From the IMG/VR virus record IMGVR_UViG_3300031992_000052, positions 31,164 to 95,163 of that record: DNA of 64,000 nt. One strand, written 5' to 3'. The stretch comes from a virus (taxonomy: Duplodnaviria; Caudoviricetes). The position numbers were made by a program, and so were the translations under genes. The notes below the pieces were generated by a model. It had not been told where the DNA came from. It searched no databases and saw nothing but the letters and a program-made list of their open reading frames with translations. Positions within the stretch are counted from its first letter, which is position 1, and each line of letters opens with the position of its first letter. This document shows positions 3,685 through 55,485 of this stretch, piece by piece.

Positions 3685-3750
3685 AAAAAGAAATCCGAAA
3701 GTCGTGTTGATTGCTGTTGATTATTAACGTAATTTAATTATAGTTTCAAC

Positions 3751-4308
3751 ATGGCAAAGAAAGAGAAGAACAATTTCACACGCGCCGTGGAATGGCTCAT
3801 AACCAACGGCGTAGTTAAGAATCAGAAGGATATGGCCGAGCGTATGGGTACGACGGAGAATACCATATCTCGCAACAAGCACGGTGGCGTCAAGCGTCCT
3901 GATGACGACACACTGCGCAAGTTCAACGAACAGTTTGGCAGCATCATCAACATCGACTACCTGCGTGGCGAGAGCAAGGTAATGCTGGTGAAAGACCTTG
4001 CCACACGTCAGTCTGCCAAACCTGCAGATAAAACAGCGTCACTCCTCGCTGCGAAAGATGAAACTATCGCCGCAAAGGACGAGGTGATTGCTGCCTTGAA
4101 AGGCAAACTCTCCAGCATGGATGAGACTATTGTCACTCTGAACGGGCGCATCGCTGACAAGGAAAAGATCATCAACACACAGGACAAACTCATCAGTACC
4201 CTTCGGCAACAGATAGACGACCTGCACCAGCAGGCCGCCTCGGAAAAGGGGCTCCACTCTGGCCATTCCCACTCGGAAGCTGCTGACCGTGGAACCGCGC
4301 ACACCTAA
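3751..4308 (+). CDS. XRE-family HTH repressor (CI-like) with coiled-coil C-terminus
   Basis: NQKDMAERMGTTENTISR HTH, INIDYLRGE motif, heptad-rich C-terminus. Confidence 0.8.
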   Translation: MAKKEKNNFTRAVEWLITNGVVKNQKDMAERMGTTENTISRNKHGGVKRPDDDTLRKFNEQFGSIINIDYLRGESKVMLVKDLATRQSAKPADKTASLLAAKDETIAAKDEVIAALKGKLSSMDETIVTLNGRIADKEKIINTQDKLISTLRQQIDDLHQQAASEKGLHSGHSHSEAADRGTAHT

Positions 4309-10500: not shown

Positions 10501-10710
10501 GCCGGTCAGCCGCCGGTTGCGCCCCGAGAGCGTCCACTCGCGATACATGTTGGTGTTGGGATTGACGCCAAGACCAGACACCATCGGGCTGAAGACCTTG
10601 ATCTTCGCGCCGGTGGCAATGCTGACGGCCAGGTCGTTGGCTGAACCGTTGGCATTGGCGATGATACTGATGGCCGACGGGGCTATATAGTGGATGGGGG
10701 ATGTGCGCAT
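4534..10710 (-). CDS. large tail fibre / host-recognition protein
   Basis: 2058 aa with collagen-like GxD repeats, repeated NLL..PKLERG-type carbohydrate-binding-like modules, an ILEI-like domain and a TGIDI..I.L.AD tail motif. Confidence 0.75.
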   Translation of the reverse strand: MRTSPIHYIAPSAISIIANANGSANDLAVSIATGAKIKVFSPMVSGLGVNPNTNMYREWTLSGRNRRLTGGNGPYTIYARLEKSEAYVADSKAYLVFAPKQQYPQDNPYGLAGEWLVKHSFVMQDGLSTQYDSRGFPSTVDDPDHWWIYMGEVSAVENGQRTVNLDTGILGTDQYNEEVSWNPEELPLHVELACAIDNEDAGNAAPYVKWGKAAVLTASLIQGWSTNADSRVSLWTVSRNTGDANADALWNGASGRRTMANGRITLSHQRGSGDDFSGAVSAAFTVTAWGDADSSSSSSDSSSSSSESSSSSAQVYEPLGSAVINVLAETKEILTLVLSDFIVSYNPQDGNYTPGGGVTINIRATSQDGSMSLLKREEAVAMTLRIYFAAVGSAEWELLVLSQEYTEATAILPTAAFSGQKSVNVRLVGNSEELARQTVAFVRDGEDSKEREWIFLPTPTNDYGTAPADIAGGQVNPEGAATGSDTNKNQDGWVPRGWYDERQGVSPTNRYEYGSYRDYVHASDSDSSSSSSDEGGHWGPFTTPKILGNFAADGADGNDGLTIRTVTAYKMSDTVPQLPTKTTGIGSGTTDFGNGWSSVPPGVDFGDIDGSWQLDGNVITLPSPGDDGNSVGMIYFTTGGDAPVVLNVNVSTEDGYDYLVIGDIDDDSMLSDDYEAVDSDMNTKYTKYSGETSGTIRLVPSAGTHFICIGFFKDSSVAVGKDECQVEVVVPTTIYASVATVVDGTVSGSWSPATVWNGADGKDGADGEKGDKGDKGDKGDKGDDGQDGKDASEVQPNLLRQTRFVAGKMDKWNVNTGTIVVNGLDSHNYIHLGSSGSSGQMIQQQITGAGHDILQPATVYTLSFWNKGRLFFDINPGDWDDEGPIPYAAFDRDWGRCLDGNKYAYIKDFGWNLDDEDWTYHTVTFKSASVIDSSVSTYVYWVTPAWEVAGSEADVCMPKLERGEAATAYLPNDEELDGADGADGAPGKDAAYISLRGHGNPPSFVTLPGAQVKIFNGSQTVTYDYTDIAVDTDSGLRRGLALFVIDRQTLEVKQTISEVSYAPRFYDTFFDSAGIDNALAAKINALDSSVFVVLVSHDATGFNSNLVAALKGCGGSDIEHTDTWRYPFAFIGYKGLAEGYALQIQMPAEPDPGGATAPALLSAYVANGMFTTTKTGKDGADGADGTDGADGRDGLDGWTLTVNPSPLIIEQNINDGTFPFSQQHPLYISMTASRGSDNNVTVGTPTSVSNDLGLTVSPIGVNDYRLQITGYSRQSGTYKTSGKITCSVVLTDTAGNTVTMPVSISVGVNLLGEWDTKIVGDAEKSVARKITYAATGTEVETIETVGQYIRSSNENIATLTEDTNGLKTGMSEIRQTVSEISLGVEDGVQANENLIPNSLMEVTTNINASSGSKHQRTLSKLTQGNTYTLTVRGCTDHDATDNNNMLTVRVRSTDSVEKYAVVIKSEERQTESRTFTVASNKDTWVVEVYFDDEDSPGVGTATVDWIKLEEGEASTPWIPCPTDVAYRNYLTNGMAADAVLGELLPTTPITIGGTAVTNMFNGMDGYRAYSDGSNIKEVLQYLLYGTNSGQTNYAISAGQYYTLSWWSRSTCSYVVYIYGSTSGYPFIDASKGLLIDEVTRVSSPSGDASTTFGASSDYVRHTITFWTKNSFSGVCRALWRIMSGITGTLEICGMSLVRGAWERIQPFGRVFSLRPKNTTFLDSLVFSAEQPDASLVGKYLYTWAVVSAVDADEGNNTYMDVMAVNPDGDEHEMLYSGDTSADDRDYGYYDTPQGWRVLWRRYEVTTYGNDLIIGDALGNDISLSDFASLKWILESQGRVRSIWAVGVSPERKPGIREIAGELEAYQRRRTGIDIERGLINLRADRVTFSNSDGTVSGKVSIDPTKGTLITQDAVLRGNLFLPYLRLTSSNISNYTVTNFYGQDVVNLESASNNLQVEVSGITIRLPRITSDMLGCEINIFNATTGTIEINGSGVTGSSASGAYFCNLLVPSQATSLRSNSIVTLQKFRELKAKAFYHGQGGSEAYNYGWLVCYANINP

Positions 10711-10786
10711 CTTTTTATTTACGATTTACTATTTTCGATTTGCGATTTTTTTTTATAACGACAAATTATCAAAATCGGGTGCCTGG

Positions 10787-15795: not shown

Positions 15796-18369
15796 ATGTC
15801 ACAAGCAATTAATATTACTAAAGGTAACGACCACCGTCTGCGCGTAGCCATGACGCGATGGTCAGAGCCGATGGCACTGTCATCGAGCAGCAATGTGCAC
15901 GCCTACGCCGTGAAGAGCGTGACGGGCGTAAGATATGCCCTCGTCGTGCGCTACTCAGCACAGGACGAGGGCGTGATGGAAGTGGACTGGCCTTCGACGC
16001 TGACGGCAGGCTGCTACGGTCTGGAGATTACTGGCACACTGGAGGGTGAGGGCCAGTGGCGCATGGCTGCCGCCAACGCCGTCAAAGTGACACAGGTAAC
16101 GGAGAAAGGCGGCGAGAGCATCACCATGACCGGCGACTCGTTCGATGTGGTGGGCGTAGTGACCGTCTGCGTAGGTTCCACCGGTGTCACCGAAGAGCTG
16201 CGCCAGGCGGTTGCCGACATGATTGAGGAGGAGTATAACGCCTCCGAACGACTGCGCGAAGAAGGCGAGTTTGTCCGTGAGACCCACGAGGACAACCGTA
16301 TACTGGCTGAAGAGGCGCGTGAGGGCAACGAGCTGACGCGAGAGAACAATGAAACCACCCGCCAGACCAATGAGACCGCACGCCAACAGGCAGAGGCGGC
16401 ACGGCAGGGAGCCGAGACGCAACGGCAGGAGGCAGAGTCGCAACGGGCAGGCAACGAGGAGTCACGCCAGCAGGTCTTCGAGACCTCGCAGACCCAACGG
16501 CAATCGTCCTACACCCAGGCCGAAATCGCCCGAGACACGGCCTACCAGACGGCAGAGACAGCACGCAATAACGCCTACAGCACCGCCGAGGGCCAGCGCG
16601 ATACCGCCTTCAGCGAAAAGCAGGCGGAGCGTCAGGCGGCGTACTCAACCGCCGAAGCCGCCCGCGATGCCGCCTTCACTGAAAAGCAGACCCAGCGCCA
16701 GACCTCCTTTGAGACGGCAGAAGCTGGAAGGGCAACAACCTTTACTGCCAACGAGCAACAGCGCGGCACGACATTCGCCACCAACGAGCAGCAGCGGCAG
16801 ACCACCTTCGCCACCAACGAGGGCACAAAGCAAGGTTCTGTAGCAGGCGACGGCAGCCGCTGGGGAATGTATAAGCAGGCAGAGTCACAGCGCGACAGCA
16901 GCTATCAGGCGGCAGAACAGCAGCGCGGCACATCCTACCAGACAGCGGAAGGACAGCGCGACAGCGACTATCAGGCGGCAGAACAGCAGCGCGGCACATC
17001 CTACCAGGCGGCAGAACAGCAGCGTAACACAGAATCGTCGGCAGCAACGTCAGCCGCCAACAATGCCGCCGCAGCCGCCAACAAGGCTGCAGAGGATGCA
17101 GAAGACAAGATAGAAGAGCTGACGGCCAAGGAGGCCACCATTGAAGACCTTGACGAGCTGGCACCCGCCATTACCGTGGCAGACCCAGCCATAGAGGTCA
17201 TCAAGGTGATACTCGCCGACAAGACTGGAGAGCAGAATCTGCAGGGACTGCCCGTCAGGCTGTACCTGTGGGATGACGAGAATGACGCGTGGGTACTTAG
17301 CGAGACAAAGACTGCCGACACCTACGGTATTGCTGTGTTCTCCGTGGAGTATGGGGTGTTGTATAAGATTACGTTTACGCAGGTGACGGGCTGTGAGGTG
17401 ATAGCCGACGTGGAACACCGGGCTGCGCTGATATGGCGTGCCGTGGAAGCTACATACAAACTGCCTGATGCCGGTGAGATACTGACGGTGGTGACACACA
17501 GCCTGAGCGGTTCGGCATACACGCCTCTGGCGGGCGTGACGGTAAGTGTGAGCTACGGATCTGTAGTGAAGAGCAAGCAGACGGACGCACAGGGACAGGC
17601 AGAGTTCACTATCCCCACGGGACAGCAGTATACCGTCAGCACAACGCCTATCGACGGCCTCTATGCCCGATACAACAAATACAGCGAGAAGCATACCGCG
17701 AGCCAGACTCGCAGGACGCAGACCTTCACATATACACCCTGCGAGACCGGCTTCTTCCTGATAGACGGCCAAGGCCGACAGTATAATATAGACGAGTGGC
17801 GTGACGCCGTTACTGCAGGAACGGTGGAAGCTGCCGATGCCAAGCTGGTGAAGATAAGTACAGAAGCCCTTGCCTCGCACGGAGGTGTGTTTGCTATAGA
17901 TATTGATATGATAGCCTACGGCACAGGGCAGCCTGCCAATCAGACATGGGCTGCATCAAACGTAAAGTTCAACTCCATTCCGGAGAACGGCAACAATACA
18001 TCGGCGAACTACTATTACGACGGCTACACAGCATCGCAGCTCATTAAACAGGAAGGTGCCGAGCGTAGCATCGCCACTCCTGCCGTAACAGCCGCCATGG
18101 CTAAGAGTGTGACCGTAGGCGATGAGACATTACCAGGATTCCTTGGCTCGATTGCCCAATGGAGTACGTTGTGGCAGAACCGTGCTGAGATAGATGCACT
18201 GATAGAAGAAGTAAGGCCAGACCACACCAACAGTATCAGCGCGAGAACGACACAGAAATGGACCAGCACACAGAGCAATGCCAACGGCGCCTGGTACTGG
18301 ACTTCGAGTGCCAACTACGGCAACGCCAAGAACAACAGCTACGCTGTCGTTCCCTTCTTCGCGTATTAA
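15796..18369 (+). CDS. DGR target protein 1 (fibre/adhesin-like, C-terminal VR)
   Basis: long ExxR coiled-coil stalk, beta-sandwich repeats, C-terminal WTSTQ..AW..YAVVPFFAY C-type-lectin-like end matching the TR. Confidence 0.9.
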   Translation: MSQAINITKGNDHRLRVAMTRWSEPMALSSSSNVHAYAVKSVTGVRYALVVRYSAQDEGVMEVDWPSTLTAGCYGLEITGTLEGEGQWRMAAANAVKVTQVTEKGGESITMTGDSFDVVGVVTVCVGSTGVTEELRQAVADMIEEEYNASERLREEGEFVRETHEDNRILAEEAREGNELTRENNETTRQTNETARQQAEAARQGAETQRQEAESQRAGNEESRQQVFETSQTQRQSSYTQAEIARDTAYQTAETARNNAYSTAEGQRDTAFSEKQAERQAAYSTAEAARDAAFTEKQTQRQTSFETAEAGRATTFTANEQQRGTTFATNEQQRQTTFATNEGTKQGSVAGDGSRWGMYKQAESQRDSSYQAAEQQRGTSYQTAEGQRDSDYQAAEQQRGTSYQAAEQQRNTESSAATSAANNAAAAANKAAEDAEDKIEELTAKEATIEDLDELAPAITVADPAIEVIKVILADKTGEQNLQGLPVRLYLWDDENDAWVLSETKTADTYGIAVFSVEYGVLYKITFTQVTGCEVIADVEHRAALIWRAVEATYKLPDAGEILTVVTHSLSGSAYTPLAGVTVSVSYGSVVKSKQTDAQGQAEFTIPTGQQYTVSTTPIDGLYARYNKYSEKHTASQTRRTQTFTYTPCETGFFLIDGQGRQYNIDEWRDAVTAGTVEAADAKLVKISTEALASHGGVFAIDIDMIAYGTGQPANQTWAASNVKFNSIPENGNNTSANYYYDGYTASQLIKQEGAERSIATPAVTAAMAKSVTVGDETLPGFLGSIAQWSTLWQNRAEIDALIEEVRPDHTNSISARTTQKWTSTQSNANGAWYWTSSANYGNAKNNSYAVVPFFAY
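16260..17030 (+). repeat. 7- and 11-residue coiled-coil coding repeats
   Basis: near-perfect 33-bp units such as YQAAEQQRGTS at about 16890-17025. Confidence 0.8.
18265..18363 (+). repeat. DGR variable repeat VR1
   Basis: 99 nt; differs from the TR only at TR adenines, plus one extra codon. Confidence 0.95.
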
Positions 18370-18417
18370 TCTCTTTAACTCTTTAACTCTTGAACTCTTT
18401 AGAACAAGCATAGGAAC

Positions 18418-19731
18418 ATGGAAAAAGAAGTATTGGAAGGATATTGGGAAAGGATGAGAGCCCAGTTTGCCAGCAAGGCCCAGATACAAGCCCTCGCCGA
18501 CCTAAAGCAAAATATGTTGACACCTGGAGCTGGCATCAGGATAAATAACGACGTGATTTCCAGCGAACCCATCACGGAGGAGTTGGTGCAGATAGGCATA
18601 ACGTCCAACGTTGCTGGTGTCAGTGTGAGTGGGCTGACCGTCAATGCCTACTACAACGGCAGTACGGAGGTGAGTGGCACAGCAACGACGGATGTTGATG
18701 GCAATGCGCTGCTGAGGGTGCCGACGGGCTATACATACAGGCTGGAGTTCCCCGTGATTGCAGGCTGTGAGGTGATTGCCGACATAGAGAAAACAGCCTC
18801 GCTGGTGTGGCGTGGCGTGAATGTGCAATACACCACGGGACTGGAGCAGGTAGAGGTGTACCTGCGCAAGCAGCTGACAAGCAGCACGGAGGCGGTGGCT
18901 GGCCAGACTGTCAGCGTGACAACGGGTGGCACAACAACCACCTACACCACAGACTCAGACGGCAAGGTGACGTTTGGCGTGACTATCGGTGACAGCTATA
19001 CGGTTTCAGCTCCGAAGCTGCGGGACTGGTATGTGAGTCGGGGAGAGTATACAAGGACTTTCGTTGCAGCCTACGAGTCTCGCGGCGTAGAGTACACCTA
19101 CAAGGCTTATGACAGCGGACTGAAGGTGGTAGACCGTGAGGGTAACGAATATACCACCGAGCAGTTTGCTGCTGCCATAGAGGCTGGCACAAAGGCACCA
19201 AACGATGCCTATCTGGTGAAGGTGGCGACTGACGCGCTGGTGTCTGGGAGCGGCTGTTTTGCCGTAAGGATAGACGATATAGTCAACAGAGGCGGCGGTG
19301 CCACATGGTCAGGCAACAATACGCTGTTCAACGACATCCCGGCCAATGGCAACAATAGCGGCAATGCGCTCTACTATAACGGGCTGCGCGCCAGCGAACT
19401 GATACAAGCAGAGGGCGATACAAGGAACATATCAACGCCTGCCGTCGATGCCTGCTTGTCGCAGAGTATTACCTTCGGCTCCGTCGAGCACAAGGGATTT
19501 TTAGGCGCCATCGGACAGTGGAGTGTCTTGTGGGCTAACAGGACAGCTGTAGATGCCATCATAGCCCTGACAAGACCCAACGCGACAAACAGCCTGAGCA
19601 ACTACACGACGCAGAAATGGACCAGCACACAGTACAGTGCCAACGGCGCCTGGAACTGGACTTCGAGTGCCAACAACGTCAGCAGCCTCAAGGTCGTCAG
19701 CTACGCTGTCGTTCCCTTCTTCGCGTATTAA
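18418..19731 (+). CDS. DGR target protein 2 (paralogue of the C-terminal half of target 1)
   Basis: shares GCEVIAD, IPxNGNN, GFLGxIxQWS and TTQKWTSTQ motifs with target 1; C-terminal VR. Confidence 0.9.
   Translation: MEKEVLEGYWERMRAQFASKAQIQALADLKQNMLTPGAGIRINNDVISSEPITEELVQIGITSNVAGVSVSGLTVNAYYNGSTEVSGTATTDVDGNALLRVPTGYTYRLEFPVIAGCEVIADIEKTASLVWRGVNVQYTTGLEQVEVYLRKQLTSSTEAVAGQTVSVTTGGTTTTYTTDSDGKVTFGVTIGDSYTVSAPKLRDWYVSRGEYTRTFVAAYESRGVEYTYKAYDSGLKVVDREGNEYTTEQFAAAIEAGTKAPNDAYLVKVATDALVSGSGCFAVRIDDIVNRGGGATWSGNNTLFNDIPANGNNSGNALYYNGLRASELIQAEGDTRNISTPAVDACLSQSITFGSVEHKGFLGAIGQWSVLWANRTAVDAIIALTRPNATNSLSNYTTQKWTSTQYSANGAWNWTSSANNVSSLKVVSYAVVPFFAY
19624..19725 (+). repeat. DGR variable repeat VR2
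   Basis: 102 nt; differs from the TR only at adenines, plus two extra codons. Confidence 0.95.
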
Positions 19732-19810
19732 TCTCTTTAACTCTTCAACTCTTTATCTCTTTAAAAAATAAGCATCGGACAAACCCTCTAAAAGTAACGA
19801 TTAAAAGAAT

Positions 19811-20206
19811 ATGCTATCAGAGAAATTGCAGATTTACCTTGACACCTACAAGCTGGTAGAAGTGCTTTACAGGCACATGAGCAATGTGCCTAAAGCCTAC
19901 CGCTATGGTGAATACGGGCGTGCATCGAGCATGTCGTTTGAGGCACTGGACATGATTTACGTGGCCAACAGCAGCCAAGAAGAACGGCCAGCAGCGCTGA
20001 CACGCTATCTGCAACTGATAGGCGGTGTGCGCAGCAGAATGCGCCTGATGAGCGAGATGAAAATCCTGCCGCCGAAGATGAGCGTCAACGTTCAGTTCCT
20101 GCTGGATAAAGTCTCGCGTCAGGCTATCGGCTGGCGCAACGCTTCGCAAAGACCAGAGCCGCTACGCCACGGCAACGCGGGAGAGTCGCATCTTGACAAG
20201 AGATGA
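19811..20206 (+). CDS. avd: DGR accessory variability determinant (four-helix bundle)
   Basis: 131-aa basic helical protein (LQIY..Y.L..PK.YRY..G ... QAIGW) directly upstream of the TR and RT. Confidence 0.85.
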   Translation: MLSEKLQIYLDTYKLVEVLYRHMSNVPKAYRYGEYGRASSMSFEALDMIYVANSSQEERPAALTRYLQLIGGVRSRMRLMSEMKILPPKMSVNVQFLLDKVSRQAIGWRNASQRPEPLRHGNAGESHLDKR

Positions 20207-20287
20207 TACGGGTCGTCGCTTTCACTCCCTGTAAAAAAAGGGGAAGAAGCAAAGGATTTGCAATACGAATATAGTAACGACACACTG

Positions 20288-20383
20288 AGCACACAGAACA
20301 ATGCCAACAACGCCTGGAACTGGACTTCGAGTGCCAACAACAACAACAAGAACAACAGCTACGCTGTCGTTCCCTTCTTCGCG
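20288..20383 (+). ncRNA. DGR template repeat (TR)
   Basis: 96 nt with 32 adenines and 11 AAY codons in the VR frame; lies between avd and the RT core. Confidence 0.95.
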
Positions 20384-21545
20384 CATCGTCAGCAAGGAGC
20401 ACGTTACTATAGAGGATATGTTCGATGCTTACCGCAACTGCCGCCGGCATAAGCGATGCAAGGACAGTGCCATTGAGTTTGAGCTGAACTACGAACTGAA
20501 CTGCTACGCACTCTACCAGCAGCTGAACAGCCAGGCCTACCAGCCCGGTACGTCGGTCACGTTCTGTGTGACGCGGCCAAAGCTGCGTGAGGTGTTCGCC
20601 GCCATGTTCCGCGACCGCGTGGTACACACGCTGCTGATGATGCGCACGGAGGCAGCCGTGGAATGCAGGCTTACCGACTGTGCCTGTGCCTGCCGCAAGG
20701 GAAAGGGCACGCACTACGCCGTCAGAAGACTGAAAGACATGCTAATGATGGCTCCGGATGGATGGACGGTAAAATGCGACATCAGCGGCTTCTTTATGGC
20801 CATCGACAAGCGCGTGCTGCTGCCCCTGTGGGAGGATGTGGTCAGAGAGGCGTGCCCTGACGATACCGACTGGTGGCTGTGGCTGACGAGGACGGTTATC
20901 ATGCACAGGCCGGAGCACGACTGTGAGATGCACGGCAACAGAAACCTGTGGAAGCGGCTGCCAGACAACAAGACACTGTTCCGTACCAACGGGCTGGGTA
21001 TGCCAATAGGCAACCTGCCCAGCCAGATTTCAGCCAACCTGTATCTTGCGGAGTTTGACAGGCAGATGACGGTGTGGCTTGGCGGCGAGATGCGCTACGT
21101 GCGCTATGCCGACGACTTTGTGATGGTACACCCCGACAGGCACGTACTGCTGCGGGTGCTGTCGCAGGCTCGCGAATGGCTGAGAGAGCACCGCAGGCTG
21201 GAGCTGCACCCGAAGAAAGTGACCATACAGCCCGTTAGCCGTGGCGTGAACTTCTTAGGCTCGTTTGTGAGAGGCGGTATTGTCACGCCCGGCAAGAGGC
21301 TGCGTGGCAATGCGCTGAGAGTGGCCGACGAGTGGGCAATGGCAGGCACACACACCGACGAAGAACGCCTGCGTGTATGCCGCCAATGGAACAGCTATGC
21401 AGGTCTGCTGCGACAGTACGACTCCTACAGAATACGGCGCAGTATGTGGCGGCGGATGGGAGATTACGAGGGCTTGAATTGTATTAACATGAATAAGATA
21501 GTATTAACCAATAAAAACAAAAATCATTATGAGACAGTTTGTTAA
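20301..21545 (+). CDS. DGR reverse transcriptase (start uncertain: 20301, 20331 or 20418)
   Basis: FRDRVVH, KCDISGFF, GMPIGNLPSQ, YVRYADDF and GVNFLG motifs. Confidence 0.95.
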   Translation: MPTTPGTGLRVPTTTTRTTATLSFPSSRIVSKEHVTIEDMFDAYRNCRRHKRCKDSAIEFELNYELNCYALYQQLNSQAYQPGTSVTFCVTRPKLREVFAAMFRDRVVHTLLMMRTEAAVECRLTDCACACRKGKGTHYAVRRLKDMLMMAPDGWTVKCDISGFFMAIDKRVLLPLWEDVVREACPDDTDWWLWLTRTVIMHRPEHDCEMHGNRNLWKRLPDNKTLFRTNGLGMPIGNLPSQISANLYLAEFDRQMTVWLGGEMRYVRYADDFVMVHPDRHVLLRVLSQAREWLREHRRLELHPKKVTIQPVSRGVNFLGSFVRGGIVTPGKRLRGNALRVADEWAMAGTHTDEERLRVCRQWNSYAGLLRQYDSYRIRRSMWRRMGDYEGLNCINMNKIVLTNKNKNHYETVC

Positions 21546-22143
21546 AAGTGTCGTACCTGCCGAGGGGTACGAGGAAGTGAAGAAAGTAGGCAGCAAGTAT
21601 GTGGTACATCTGGAGGGTGTTCCGTCGGGAGAAGCCGATGGTACTACGGCCTGCTGGGAAACAATGACCGACGGGGAGCCTGATATGGCTGCTCTGACGG
21701 AAGAGCTACAGGCATGGAAAGCCCACGTCGCAGAACTGGAGCTTACGTCTGCCGTATCGTCCAAGCAGCGCGAGATCCTGTCCTATGACAGTTCGCCATC
21801 CGTAAACAGCTTCGAGATTCGGCGTAACGGCGAGAAGATGATGGACTACTGGATAGGCCGTGACCTGCGTACCTCGCTGGAGGGCGACGTGCTGGCAGCA
21901 TCGGCCATCGGTGACACCTACAAGTTCGATATCCGCGAGCTGGGTATCACGCTGGAGCTGAACTGCACTAAGTTCTTGGCCGCCCTTACACACCTACGCC
22001 AGTATGCCTACCAGGCTTTCAATGTCACCAGCCTTCACCTGGCTAACGTGGGCCAGCTTACTACTGTAGAAGCCGTGCAGGGGTATGACTTCACCACAGG
22101 CTATCCCGCAAAGCTGGTGTTTAATCTTGAGGAGCTGACCTAA
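21529..22143 (+). CDS. DUF4376-like tail-fibre-associated protein
   Basis: YDSSPSVNSF ... YA.QAFNVT..H...V..L.TVEAV..YDFTTGYP.KL pattern. Confidence 0.7.
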   Translation: MRQFVKSVVPAEGYEEVKKVGSKYVVHLEGVPSGEADGTTACWETMTDGEPDMAALTEELQAWKAHVAELELTSAVSSKQREILSYDSSPSVNSFEIRRNGEKMMDYWIGRDLRTSLEGDVLAASAIGDTYKFDIRELGITLELNCTKFLAALTHLRQYAYQAFNVTSLHLANVGQLTTVEAVQGYDFTTGYPAKLVFNLEELT

Positions 22144-22156
22144 AAAAAGGAATGGT

Positions 22157-22258
22157 ATGAAAGATGTAATGTTCGCCGGGATGGGCATGATGTATATGCT
22201 CTCCGTCATCGTCATAGCACAGTCCCGTCTGTTGCGATACCATCGCAACAATCCCTAA
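22157..22258 (+). CDS. 33-aa hydrophobic peptide
   Basis: manual translation MKDVMFAGMGMMYMLSVIVIAQSRLLRYHRNNP; below the ORF-track cut-off. Confidence 0.4.
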   Translation: MKDVMFAGMGMMYMLSVIVIAQSRLLRYHRNNP

Positions 22259-22284
22259 TACTCTCCCCTCGGGGACGAGAGTAT

Positions 22285-22448
22285 AAAAAAGGTCCCCGAA
22301 CAACTTTTCTTCATTATGTAGCATCTGACCTCTAATAATATAGCCGCTTACGACAGCAAGTTGCCCGGGGACTAAATTGTCACCCTCGTACCGCTGCCGT
22401 AAAGCGTTTGTGCTATATCAATATAGAGGTCAGATGGGTGCAAAGGTA
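22285..22448 (-). ncRNA. candidate structured small RNA with its own -7 promoter
   Basis: TACCTTTG at 22448-22441, 13-bp perfect stem 22322-22334/22424-22436 with nested stems, U6 tail at 22290-22285. Confidence 0.55.
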
Positions 22449-22482
22449 ATAAGAATATTTTAATCTTTAACATTTTTGCACG

Positions 22483-22722
22483 ATGAAAAGAATAGATTTA
22501 GTGGAATTTAACAAGGAACTGCTTCAAAAGTTGAACGAAGCGGGCATCCGATTGGAGGATTACAAGTATTGCGACTTATACCGCGACTACCTTGAATTAT
22601 CAAAAACGATGGTCACTCGCAAGGCAGTTATCCTGACGCTGGCCGAGCGTCATCATATCAGCGACAGACAAGTTTATAACATCTTGCACCACCTTGAAAT
22701 GTCAGTAAACAGAAGACATTGA
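22483..22722 (+). CDS. small HTH DNA-binding protein
   Basis: C-terminal LAERHHISDRQVYNIL helix-turn-helix. Confidence 0.7.
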   Translation: MKRIDLVEFNKELLQKLNEAGIRLEDYKYCDLYRDYLELSKTMVTRKAVILTLAERHHISDRQVYNILHHLEMSVNRRH

Positions 22723-26861: not shown

Positions 26862-27563
26862 CTATCGGCTGAAGCGCATCCGTTTAGTAGAGTCGCCATC
26901 TGCGCGTCTCGCCATCGGCGGTGCGACGGGCAGTGTCTTAGCAGTATCTTTAGCCACAGAGCCCGCCGCTTCATCGGCGGGCTGACCGTTCTCCTCCGTT
27001 TCTACAGTTTCAGGCATATTTCCGCCTTCTGCCTTGGGTGCATTCTCCACCATCCCCTTGTACTTCGTCCACAGCCCATCCACGTCCTCGCGCTTGCCGT
27101 AAGCCGTGGCCGTGAAGTGCCGCCCGTAGCGCATGTTCACAGGTCCCTCGATGGCGAAGTCTGGCAGCAGTATCGCCGTCGCGTCTTGCTGAATGTCATG
27201 CAGCACCAGCCGCTCTCCGTAGGGATTGTCTTTCTGCCACGCCGAGGCATCAGGAGAAACAGCCTCCGACAGGTCGCTGACGATGGTCAGGCGGGCTATC
27301 ACGTTCACGTTTCCGCAACCGTCCATGCGTGCCCACTGTTTCCGCATCCATGTGGCGATAATCTCTGCCGCCTGGTCGGGCAGCGACGGGGCGGATATCA
27401 GCATCTCCGCGTTGCTGTAGCGTGTAAGCAGGGCAGGCAGCAGTTCCGTCAGGCTCAGGTCGCCATAGCCTTCCATCTGCGCCGTACCTTCCTTTTCCAG
27501 TATGTTGCGCAGCTCGCGCAGTTGTTTCTGTGCGCAACAAGGTTCTATCAGTTTCGTAACCAT
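26862..27563 (-). CDS. hypothetical protein
   Basis: 233-aa ORF at the end of the capsid operon. Confidence 0.7.
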   Translation of the reverse strand: MVTKLIEPCCAQKQLRELRNILEKEGTAQMEGYGDLSLTELLPALLTRYSNAEMLISAPSLPDQAAEIIATWMRKQWARMDGCGNVNVIARLTIVSDLSEAVSPDASAWQKDNPYGERLVLHDIQQDATAILLPDFAIEGPVNMRYGRHFTATAYGKREDVDGLWTKYKGMVENAPKAEGGNMPETVETEENGQPADEAAGSVAKDTAKTLPVAPPMARRADGDSTKRMRFSR

Positions 27564-27602
27564 AACTCTTAATTCTTAACCATTAGCTCTTAACTAAAAA
27601 GA

Positions 27603-53364: not shown

Positions 53365-53469
53365 CTTTGTAATTTACGATTTGACGATTTACTATTTACT
53401 ATTTATTTACGATTTACCATTTACTATTTCTGAGCGGTAGCAAATTATTCACTATTCACTATTCACTTT

Positions 53470-55485
53470 TCACTTAAAAAAGCTCCAGTCCTTGCCGACG
53501 GCATTTGGGTAGTCGTCGAAAATCTTGTGCAACTCGTCGTCGGTGAACAGGCGGTGCTTGCCGGTGCCGCCAATGAAGTCACGGAACGACTGCTTCCAAT
53601 ACACCGTGGCGCGGTCTCGCGTCTGCTGCATCACGTCCTGCACGAAGGCGAGGCACTCGGCAGGGTCGTAGGGCCTGAACTCCTGGCCGCCGAGCGTGAA
53701 CCCCTTGCGGCATACCTTCGTGCGCTCGGTCATCAGTCCGATCTTGAAGTGCTGGCAGCCCGCGTCGAGCGCCTGCTGTATCATGCGGAAACTGGAGTCG
53801 AAGTCAATGACCGGCTCGATGCTGGCCCACGTCTTGAAGTGCATCTCTGTCAGTTGCATCATGGTCTTGATGCGCTTGGCGTTGGGGTCGGCGTGTGGTT
53901 CCAGTTCGTCGTGCCCCGTCAACGTGAATCCGAATGCTATGGGGTCGGGGTCGCTGGTAAAGTGCGGGTTGTCGATGAAGTCGAGCCGTCCGTGGCCTGT
54001 ATGATAGAAGGGGATACTGCGGCTCCATTGTTCTGTTTTGTCAAATCCAAATATTTGCTCGGTAAATGAATCGAGGATGAGAAAAGTAGCATCCTTGGTA
54101 AGCAACATCACGGGGATGCGCATTTGGTGGGCGGCATCGTGGGCGATGGTCAGCGACAGGTTGCGCGTATTCGGCAGGCACGGGTCACTGGTGAAGGTGA
54201 AGAACAACCCGCCGTCGCGGATGATTTCGTCCTTGTGTTCGATGATTTCGGTCATCGCCAGGTGATAGGCATGGTCGTTACTCACCACGCCCTTCTTCAG
54301 CACGGGGTGATCTTGTCCGAGGTATTTGCCCGACGGGCCTTTCCGCAGATAGCAGTTATGCGCCACAAAGCCGTTGGCAAAGAAGTTGCCCGTGGTGGTC
54401 TCTATGTCGATAAGCCGTGCAGGGTTCGTCAGTTTCTTCTTTTCTGTCATGTACACGCTGTTGTTGTCGAATTTCAGCCGAGAACCCTCGAAGTCAAACA
54501 GCGACGTGATGGCCGGACGGCAGGCACGCACAAAGAGAAGGCTCGTCAGCAGTCCACCCTTCAAGCGTACTATCTTCAACACTTTCCCGCTTGGCTCCTG
54601 CTTTGGCTTGTCGAAGGTATAGGGGATGCCAAACTCGTCGAGTGCCGTGCAGTATGTGCTGATGATTCGGTCGTTGCAGTTAGACATACGCTTTGCCCGC
54701 CTCTTGCCGCCCTCAGCGTCATAAATGCCAGCCATAAAGCCGCGCAGCCACTCCCGGCTGTCGCCCCATTCTATGAGCGAGGTTATCTTCTGATAGTTAT
54801 AAATGCCTCCTTTTCGGATGGCCTTATGCACGACGACCTCCTTTGTAGTCCTGTCAATCATAGGAAAGTCCGTCTCGTTTACCTCAATGCCGAAATGCAA
54901 CAGATACTCACGTGTGCGGTCGATGGCTTCATGTTCCTTCAGTGCCAGCCGGAAGGGGTACTCGCTGTAATTGTCATAGTGGTATTCGGCCAGGTTGGCA
55001 TCGCCGCGAATGATTCCCGACAGATACCCACGGCGGTAGTCGTCGGTGATGTCAAAGTCCGAGACTGGGTACTGCGGTATGCACACCATGCGGTTGTTCA
55101 CCGTCAGGAACGGACGGCGGTGGAAGCCGCGCTCCGTGCCTGATGTGTACTTCCATCCGCGCTCGGTCAGGAAACGGTGGTCGCCGGAGCATACTATCTG
55201 CTGTCCGTTAGAAAACGTCAGCCGCCAAGGTTTCTTTGTCACCTCGGCCCTTGCCGTCACCTTGGCTCGTGTGATGGCGTACTTTCCTGTGTTCTGCTTC
55301 TCCACTCCGTAGATTTCGTCACCCACCTGCACGTCATCAATGCGTTTCGATGAACCGTCGGCCATAAATACATGCGTGTCTGGAGCGACACAGTAGTTAC
55401 ACTGGTTGCTGCATCCGACATACGGGTTCACAGCCCATCTGCCATACTCCTCGGCATTCTTCTTGGGTCTTGATAAGATTTTCAT
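53470..55485 (-). CDS. radical SAM protein (SplB/Rv2578c-like) containing an intein
   Basis: NPYVGCSNQCNY|intein|CYLR, plus F.SDP, LLTK and TWASIEP motifs. Confidence 0.88.
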   Translation of the reverse strand: MKILSRPKKNAEEYGRWAVNPYVGCSNQCNYCVAPDTHVFMADGSSKRIDDVQVGDEIYGVEKQNTGKYAITRAKVTARAEVTKKPWRLTFSNGQQIVCSGDHRFLTERGWKYTSGTERGFHRRPFLTVNNRMVCIPQYPVSDFDITDDYRRGYLSGIIRGDANLAEYHYDNYSEYPFRLALKEHEAIDRTREYLLHFGIEVNETDFPMIDRTTKEVVVHKAIRKGGIYNYQKITSLIEWGDSREWLRGFMAGIYDAEGGKRRAKRMSNCNDRIISTYCTALDEFGIPYTFDKPKQEPSGKVLKIVRLKGGLLTSLLFVRACRPAITSLFDFEGSRLKFDNNSVYMTEKKKLTNPARLIDIETTTGNFFANGFVAHNCYLRKGPSGKYLGQDHPVLKKGVVSNDHAYHLAMTEIIEHKDEIIRDGGLFFTFTSDPCLPNTRNLSLTIAHDAAHQMRIPVMLLTKDATFLILDSFTEQIFGFDKTEQWSRSIPFYHTGHGRLDFIDNPHFTSDPDPIAFGFTLTGHDELEPHADPNAKRIKTMMQLTEMHFKTWASIEPVIDFDSSFRMIQQALDAGCQHFKIGLMTERTKVCRKGFTLGGQEFRPYDPAECLAFVQDVMQQTRDRATVYWKQSFRDFIGGTGKHRLFTDDELHKIFDDYPNAVGKDWSFFK
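54355..55392 (-). mobile_element. 346-aa intein with LAGLIDADG homing endonuclease
   Basis: starts CVAPDTHVFMADGS, has block B SGDHRFLT, YLSGIIRGDAN and FMAGIYDAEGG, ends NFFANGFVAHN followed by Cys. Confidence 0.93.

Follow-up and report, generated by a model that had tools for sequence, protein, structure and literature searches.

Both target genes of a two-target DGR in a phage of the Caudoviricetes are followed, from the first base past the stop codon, by an array of four tandem 8-nt units, whereas the template repeat (TR) lacks the array. Comparative data indicate that this array is a real, non-random and conserved element that marks the VRs of a large DGR clade. On balance, we lean toward the reading that it is a cis-acting part of DGR recipient-site recognition, which works with or without a hairpin. 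The main questions about the DGR mechanism concern how the system tells a target gene from the template and how it installs the cDNA, and nearly all experiments have been done with BPP-1. Two thirds of DGRs have no hairpin such as that of BPP-1, and the array would be a concrete, mutable candidate for the missing "mutate here" signal. Such a signal is relevant to DGRs as targeted-mutagenesis tools and to the annotation of true DGR targets, including remote ones and those left after DGR loss.

Octamer arrays in a two-target DGR

The window analyzed here is a 64,000-nt stretch of a 95-kb virus record (IMGVR_UViG_3300031992_000052) and contains a complete DGR (targets, avd, TR and RT), with all parts on the plus strand. 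Target gene 1 (ORF 15796-18369, TAA at 18367-18369) carries VR1 (18265-18366) at its 3' end, and target gene 2 (ORF 18418-19731, TAA at 19729-19731) carries VR2 (19624-19728). Downstream are avd (accessory variability determinant, 19811-20206), the TR (20288-20386), the DGR reverse transcriptase (RT, 20418-21545; frame open from 20301; Pfam RVT_1, E = 1.1e-13) and, next after the RT, the conserved phage gene ORF204 (21529-22143). The Avd-type gene matched Pfam bAvd (PF22296) at E = 1.8e-5, a score below the curated cut-off, and has syntenic homologs in relatives. As expected of a DGR cassette, TR, VR1 and VR2 could be aligned with differences mainly at TR adenines, and the RT and the accessory gene are adjacent to them. 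The DGR region had no match in a DNA search of the INPHARED phage collection, no Rfam family was found in 18000-22500, and a single-protein pattern scan of viral contigs gave no match.

VR1, VR2 and TR share, without a mismatch, a final 27 nt that runs up to TTCTTCGCG, and they diverge from there on. This adenine-poor end (AGCTACGCTGTCGTTCCCTTCTTCGCG) lies at 18337-18363 in VR1, 19699-19725 in VR2 and 20357-20383 in the TR. It is GC-rich and is followed by VR-specific sequence, as in BPP-1-type systems, and is a candidate IMH/IMH*. Past TTCTTCGCG, both VRs read TATTAATCTC, that is, TATTAA and then the array. Array 1 (18370-18401, plus strand) consists of TCTCTTTA ACTCTTTA ACTCTTGA ACTCTTTA and array 2 (19732-19763, plus strand) of TCTCTTTA ACTCTTCA ACTCTTTA TCTCTTTA; each begins 6 nt past the end of the TR/VR homology. 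A first-pass annotation of this DNA had described four 8-bp units behind both VRs, a TR without them and no hairpin at the VR flanks. On re-reading, the units were exact (consensus WCTCTTNA), the TR continued with CATCGTCAGC in place of TATTAA and the array, and DNA folds of the two VR flanks gave z = 0.0 and +0.8 relative to shuffles.

Tandem Repeats Finder reported both arrays with a period of 8 and 4.4-4.5 copies. The two-unit pattern WCTCTTNAWCTCTTNA, with at most 2 mismatches allowed, had 6 matches in the 64-kb window, all within the two arrays; shuffled sequences had 0.87 matches on average and none of 100 reached 6. A three-unit pattern occurred nowhere else in the whole 95-kb record, nor behind any other gene. 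The stretch formed by TATTAA and the array, no part of which is templated by the TR, is identical at 35 of 38 positions (92%) between the two paralogous flanks. Identity elsewhere between these paralogs was 57-65% in the coding DNA before the VR and 54% in the 30 nt past the array (binomial P ~0.001-0.007).

Two further features were observed near the arrays. Four nt past the VR2 array, ATAAGCATCGGACAAACCCTCTAA (19768-19791) could pair with ATAGAGGATATGTTCGATGCTTAC (20409-20432), which spans the RT start codon, in a long-range helix around avd and the TR. Duplex energies are predicted at -25 to -32 kcal/mol for the window and for eight relatives. Compensatory changes are present, and in one relative (L020) both strands differ markedly in sequence. 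By this prediction, the helix may delimit the DGR RNA. Behind array 1, positions 18406-18417 (AAGCATAGGAAC) are a decayed copy of the helix strand found upstream of avd, which implies that the duplication giving rise to the second target carried along the array and ~15 further bases.

Conservation in related phages and in cellular DGRs

The first-pass annotation had suggested looking for the array in related DGRs; it was found behind homologous and distantly related targets and never behind templates. For homologs of target 2 (24 proteins), loci were taken from IMG/VR and metagenomes. Targets with 33-55% protein identity have 2-4 units directly past the stop codon. For example, the flank in L001 reads TGA ACTCTTTA TCTCTTTA TCTCTTTG CCTCTTGG, that in L003 reads TAA TCTCTTTA TCTCTTTA TCTCTCCG and continues with a 10-bp GC stem, and L019, L023 and L015 have four units apiece. 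When 293 kb of these loci were searched on both strands, 23 of 24 tandem matches lay directly behind target-gene stops. The single exception was a fourfold reverse complement of AAAGGGTT just 5' of an ATG in L028. In the homolog loci where the TR could be located, no array was found behind it. The gene next to the array may be target 2, avd or an unrelated ORF204 homolog, and lies 16 to >700 nt away, whereas the distance to the target stop is fixed. The variation of the downstream gene suggests that the array is tied to the VR and not to the next gene.

An RT alignment (A4) yielded 79 further phage DGR loci, with RTs 33-52% identical, in which whatever lay 5' of the RT served as the TR and blastn was used to locate the VRs. 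Most of the VR flanks have 2-4 or more units with a period of 8, also where the target ends differ (FFAY, VFAC, VYAC, VSAF), and DGRs with RTs 34-62% identical and different target C-termini likewise carry the array. Loci without it have a GC hairpin immediately past the stop. A self-match score, which assumes no motif, averaged 14.8 of 24 in VR flanks, as compared with 10.9 in TR flanks and 10.4 in random windows. In a quick RT tree, at least 3 units were present in 37 of the 40 rows of one clade, and the rows without arrays formed two hairpin-only clades plus singles. The trait was clustered on this tree, with 8 changes versus 15.7 in shuffles, and none of 500 shuffles was as low.

In several lineages (L050, L052, L063 and L069; L051 and L073; L068 and L072; L076) the conserved FFAC end of the target is not followed by a stop, and the ORF extends 22-29 codons through the array, which is therefore translated; the same is probably true of L077, which is near-identical to L076. 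These lineages argue against a role that needs untranslated RNA.

The same alignment, used against one genome per GTDB species, retrieved 80 cellular DGRs from Bacteroidota, Alpha-, Beta- and Gammaproteobacteria (including Legionella), Chlorobiaceae, Actinomycetota, Spirochaetes, Chlamydiae and several CPR phyla. Arrays were seen in DGRs of Bacteroidota, Proteobacteria, Legionella, Chlorobiaceae, Actinomycetota, Spirochaetes and CPR phyla. Examples of cellular flanks are TAAC TATTTATC AATTTAAC CATTTAAC followed by CGC GTAG CGG, AACTTTATCCCTTTAACCCTTTAA followed by a hairpin, and GACTCTTAGTCTCTTTGTCCCTTTGACTCTTTG. With the threshold for an array set at a period-8 self-match of at least 13 of 16, 45% of 65 unique cellular flanks scored, versus 0.9% of random windows and 1.7% of AT-rich windows, and about half of the cellular flanks fell under the threshold. 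The period was 8 in 27 of the 29 scoring flanks (p = 3.5e-25). Among 140 VR/TR pairs from phages and cells, the threshold was reached by 63 VR flanks and by no TR flank (Wilcoxon p = 3e-21). Among described phages, Burkholderia phage Magia and Pseudomonas phage Cruim01 have period-8 YTTCA/TTTA units, and Bacteroides phage F2 has two weak units and a hairpin with a GAAA loop.

Pooling of 56 phase-aligned arrays gave the unit W-C(92%)-T(75%)-M-T(100%)-T(92%)-T(74%)-A(82%), and the units of the window (TCTCTTTA, ACTCTTTA, ACTCTTGA and ACTCTTCA) fit this matrix. We provisionally define a class of octamer-array-flanked DGR targets, in which 2-3 or more units repeat in tandem on the sense strand with a period of 8 (in rare cases 7 or 9) and the first unit begins no more than ~10 nt past the point where TR/VR homology ends. 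Both targets of the window belong to it by placement and period, by the unit W-C-T-M-T-T-T-A, and by a TR that has no array. We found no description of these repeats, or of their strings, in the literature that we could consult, which covers the key DGR papers incompletely.

Hairpins, array-only targets and relatives without a DGR

In the first-pass annotation the array was thought to stand in place of a hairpin. This is true of the phage studied here and of L015, L020, L023, the L037 group and L085, whose flanks have z >= 0, but not of most relatives, in which array and GC-rich hairpin occur together. In most lineages the array comes first and then the GC hairpin (for example, the flanks of L003 and L019 have clear hairpins, with z = -5.5 and -3.2), and sister clades without the array have the hairpin only. 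In some lineages, the pyrimidine array itself pairs with a downstream purine-rich arm. The co-occurrence suggests that the array is a separate element that is able to stand alone, rather than simply a substitute.

The BPP-1 target site comprises the IMH (a GC-rich block plus 21 bp) and a downstream GC hairpin/cruciform with a GRNA loop, and stems of this kind have 7-10 GC-rich bp and lie 4-34 bp from the VR (Guo et al. 2011, PMC3240598). DNA folds of the two window flanks contained no such hairpin (GC-rich, 7-10 bp, 4-nt GRNA loop, 4-34 bp 3' of the VR). The array occupies exactly the spacer between VR and hairpin in that scheme. Like the BPP-1 site, it is VR-specific, lies directly 3' of the last TR-shared bases with no copy at the TR, and, at 0-34 bp from the VR, takes up the position in which the hairpin is required in BPP-1; both array and GC hairpin are present in many relatives, and the loops in cellular DGRs are often GAAG, GTAG or GGAG. 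Unlike the BPP-1 site, the array is made of direct repeats with no inverted repeat, its 8-nt unit is base-specific and present in 2-4 copies, no structure is predicted in this phage, and its function is a proposal from sequence. BPP-1 has Avd and the known hairpin and no array, so the element is not universal.

High-confidence GC inverted repeats were reported in only 34% of DGRs, with 66% lacking them, and where IMH equals IMH*, recognition must reach downstream (Wu et al. 2018, PMC5758913). The DGR of the window, whose shared end is identical in VRs and TR, falls in this majority class. No downstream element was named in that survey (PMC5758913); the octamer array offers a concrete candidate.

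Targets that have only the array appear to be active. In P0001, a 98% relative that was compared with target 2 as protein, the first 409 residues are identical and differences occur only inside VR2, where there are 9 changes including one indel. In the L037 group, five near-identical phages with four units, no hairpin and the avd ATG directly after the array, the flanks are nearly invariant, and nearly all VR differences are at TR adenines; L078 has one change elsewhere, and two of the phages carry 3-nt indels. These patterns indicate that array-only targets are still being diversified.

Some relatives have the ORF204 homolog directly after the target gene, without avd-TR-RT between them. The RT is absent from complete genomes with terminal repeats (L005, L007 and L010) and from two genomes that are 98-99% complete (L008 and L012), whereas the same search gave matches at E ~1e-190 in the positive controls L003 and L006. 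All five RT-less phages keep TAA TCTCTTT(A/T), one degenerate unit and the hairpin, which is one unit fewer than in DGR-bearing sisters. The formerly variable C-terminus is retained in these sister phages, and four of the RT-less phages have non-adenine substitutions in the former VR. As judged from these genomes, sister phages are polymorphic for the presence or absence of the DGR cassette. L030 has two units, and no units are seen in L028 and L029, which are more distant. Phages with a DGR have 3-4 or more units and those without have 0-3, a difference that is suggestive only, since few independent lineages are involved. The first unit is invariant even in the DGR-less phages. In complete RT-less genomes, 1-3 units and the hairpin are retained, so an array can be kept where no DGR is present in cis; this persistence could reflect another function, recent loss or diversification in trans.

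A proposed role in recipient-site recognition and alternative explanations

A target-recognition role had been suggested for the array in the initial annotation. The part of this proposal that stood is a conserved VR-specific element that is due neither to chance nor to mere co-duplication; the role itself is what we infer from sequence. A plain pyrimidine-rich or unwinding element, as also suggested there, accounts less well for a unit that is base-specific (W-C-T-M-T-T-T-A) across phyla, and this consensus fits a sequence-specific reading better than mere AT-rich unwinding.

Because the adenine-poor ends of VR and TR are identical here, the discriminator of recipient and donor must lie in the flank. 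In the model we propose, an array of 8-nt units a few bases past the VR/TR divergence would mark the VR, and not the TR, for installation of the mutagenised cDNA. Either the RT-Avd particle or a conserved host factor would read the units base-specifically. A spacing of 8 nt does not match the helical repeat, and this suggests that an oligomer would do the reading on locally opened or single-stranded DNA. Where a GC hairpin/cruciform is present, it and the array would act jointly; where it is absent, as in this phage, the array would act alone. Both the need of the array for homing and the identity of its reader are what we infer under this model.

Arrays of short repeats that are read by oligomeric proteins include plasmid iterons and the GAG/UAG repeats that wrap the TRAP ring. 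By analogy, the octamer array would resemble these in having several close copies of a short base-specific unit in variable number. It differs in that its 8-nt spacing is far shorter than that of iterons, and in that iterons and TRAP repeats have known binders, whereas the array has only candidate readers. A link to the pentameric Avd is speculation. A bolder version of the proposal, which is possible but which we regard as rather doubtful, is that the array is the main recipient/donor discriminator in a large cross-phylum DGR clade, is read base-specifically by RT-Avd, perhaps with each Avd protomer taking one unit of unwound DNA, and can replace the cruciform entirely. If this were true, a portable tag of ~32 nt behind a TR-like sequence would suffice to make any gene a DGR target.

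Several alternatives were weighed against recipient-site recognition. The units might be a mechanistic scar, a by-product of repeated retrohoming (through slippage or microhomology duplication of the 3' junction) that has no role of its own, accumulates while a DGR is active and decays after its loss. Such an origin would fit the copy number, which differs between close relatives (1-4 units) and is higher in DGR-bearing than in DGR-less phages, as well as the resemblance of the units to the last bases of the gene and its stop (in cellular DGRs, GCTTTTTAAC and then TATTTAAC-type units). In the window, the 8-nt register of the array also takes in the CTT of the shared end. We nevertheless consider a scar improbable, since a base-specific consensus is kept across phyla, the paralogous arrays are 92% identical amid flanks of 54-65%, and the first unit does not vary even after the DGR is gone. 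Moreover, the same period and letters would not be expected where the junctions differ (FFAY, VFAC and VSAF ends). A neutral repeat that was simply co-duplicated with the target, which was the fallback in the first-pass annotation, is extremely unlikely. The duplicated stretch does run beyond the array, into AAGCATAGGAAC at 18406-18417, but comparative data contradict this reading: the array is conserved at 33% protein identity and across RT clades and phyla, with a fixed period and consensus.

It is also conceivable, with a small probability similar to that of a scar, that the array works at the RNA level as a 3' element of the target mRNA. It would then form a single-stranded tract rich in U and C, which a purine-rich arm and hairpin further downstream often close, and would serve processing, stability, termination or uncoupling from the avd-TR-RT transcript. 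The pyrimidine-rich strand is always the sense strand, many lineages pair the array with a purine-rich arm around the GC hairpin (often through G-U pairs, which favor RNA), and the array persists in RT-less phages. However, the flanks of the window, L015, L020, L023, the L037 group and L085 have no structure beyond that of shuffles, the array is translated in several lineages, a U-tract terminator architecture is missing, and the pattern is found behind no other gene of the 95-kb phage. In addition, the motif is common to phyla with very different RNA-decay and termination machineries, for which a DGR-borne reader fits better. A promoter or leader element for the downstream gene, similar to the other 7-8-nt arrays of this phage just 5' of start codons, is very unlikely. 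Tandem heptamer arrays do occur in leaders of the window (10717-10748, 53372-53474), L028 has AAAGGGTT x4 directly 5' of an ATG, and only 16 nt separate the end of array 1 from the ATG of target 2. These observations are outweighed by the varying distance and identity of the next gene (16 to >700 nt; target 2, avd or ORF204) at a fixed distance from the stop codon, by the composition of the leader arrays, which are A-rich on the coding strand whereas the VR array is T/C-rich, and by the hairpin that often lies between the array and the next gene.

Other ideas were tested and dropped. If the array paired with the DGR RNA as an RNA guide, it should form favorable duplexes near the TR, but duplex energies with the 130 nt 3' or the 150 nt 5' of the TR were no better than those of shuffles (mean z = +0.4, +0.3 and -0.4 for the array in sense or antisense, n=51), and reverse complements of array 6-mers were not enriched in the 5' region of avd-TR-RT (55 observed, 46.5 expected). 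A purine tract 5' of the window TR, considered as a partner of the array, was not conserved in relatives. An 8-nt period might close all three reading frames after indels in the VR; this was the case within 36 nt in 12-17% of flanks, versus 3-7% of shuffles, and each window flank has two frames closed, so a three-frame stop was dropped as a general explanation. A -7/-33 promoter was rejected because the spacing did not fit and the distance between array and avd is not fixed in relatives. Similarly, an intrinsic terminator (a GC hairpin and then a T-run) was rejected, as the window flanks have no hairpin and the T-rich units of relatives precede their hairpins rather than follow them. The array is also not one of the leader or regulatory arrays of this phage, as its motif is confined, within the 95 kb, to the ends of the two VRs and the other arrays have different, A-rich units.

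These other arrays have a period of 7 nt and are found in intergenic leaders at 1582-1615, 10717-10748, 27553-27595, 53372-53429 and 53446-53474. Their units are ATTTACG, TATTCAC and TAACTCT-like, and, read on the coding strand, they are heptamers rich in A that immediately precede start codons, such as the ATG at 10710 on the minus strand. Tandem short repeats appear to be a general feature of regulatory regions in these phages. A hexamer run (AACGTG, AACGTC, AACGAT) was seen in the avd-TR spacer of L023 (~1040-1160), and other relatives lack it. In L001, an intergenic region at ~3730-4010 contains facing arrays of AAAGATTT and AATCTTNA units, that is, inverted tandem repeats, and is possibly an origin or operator region.
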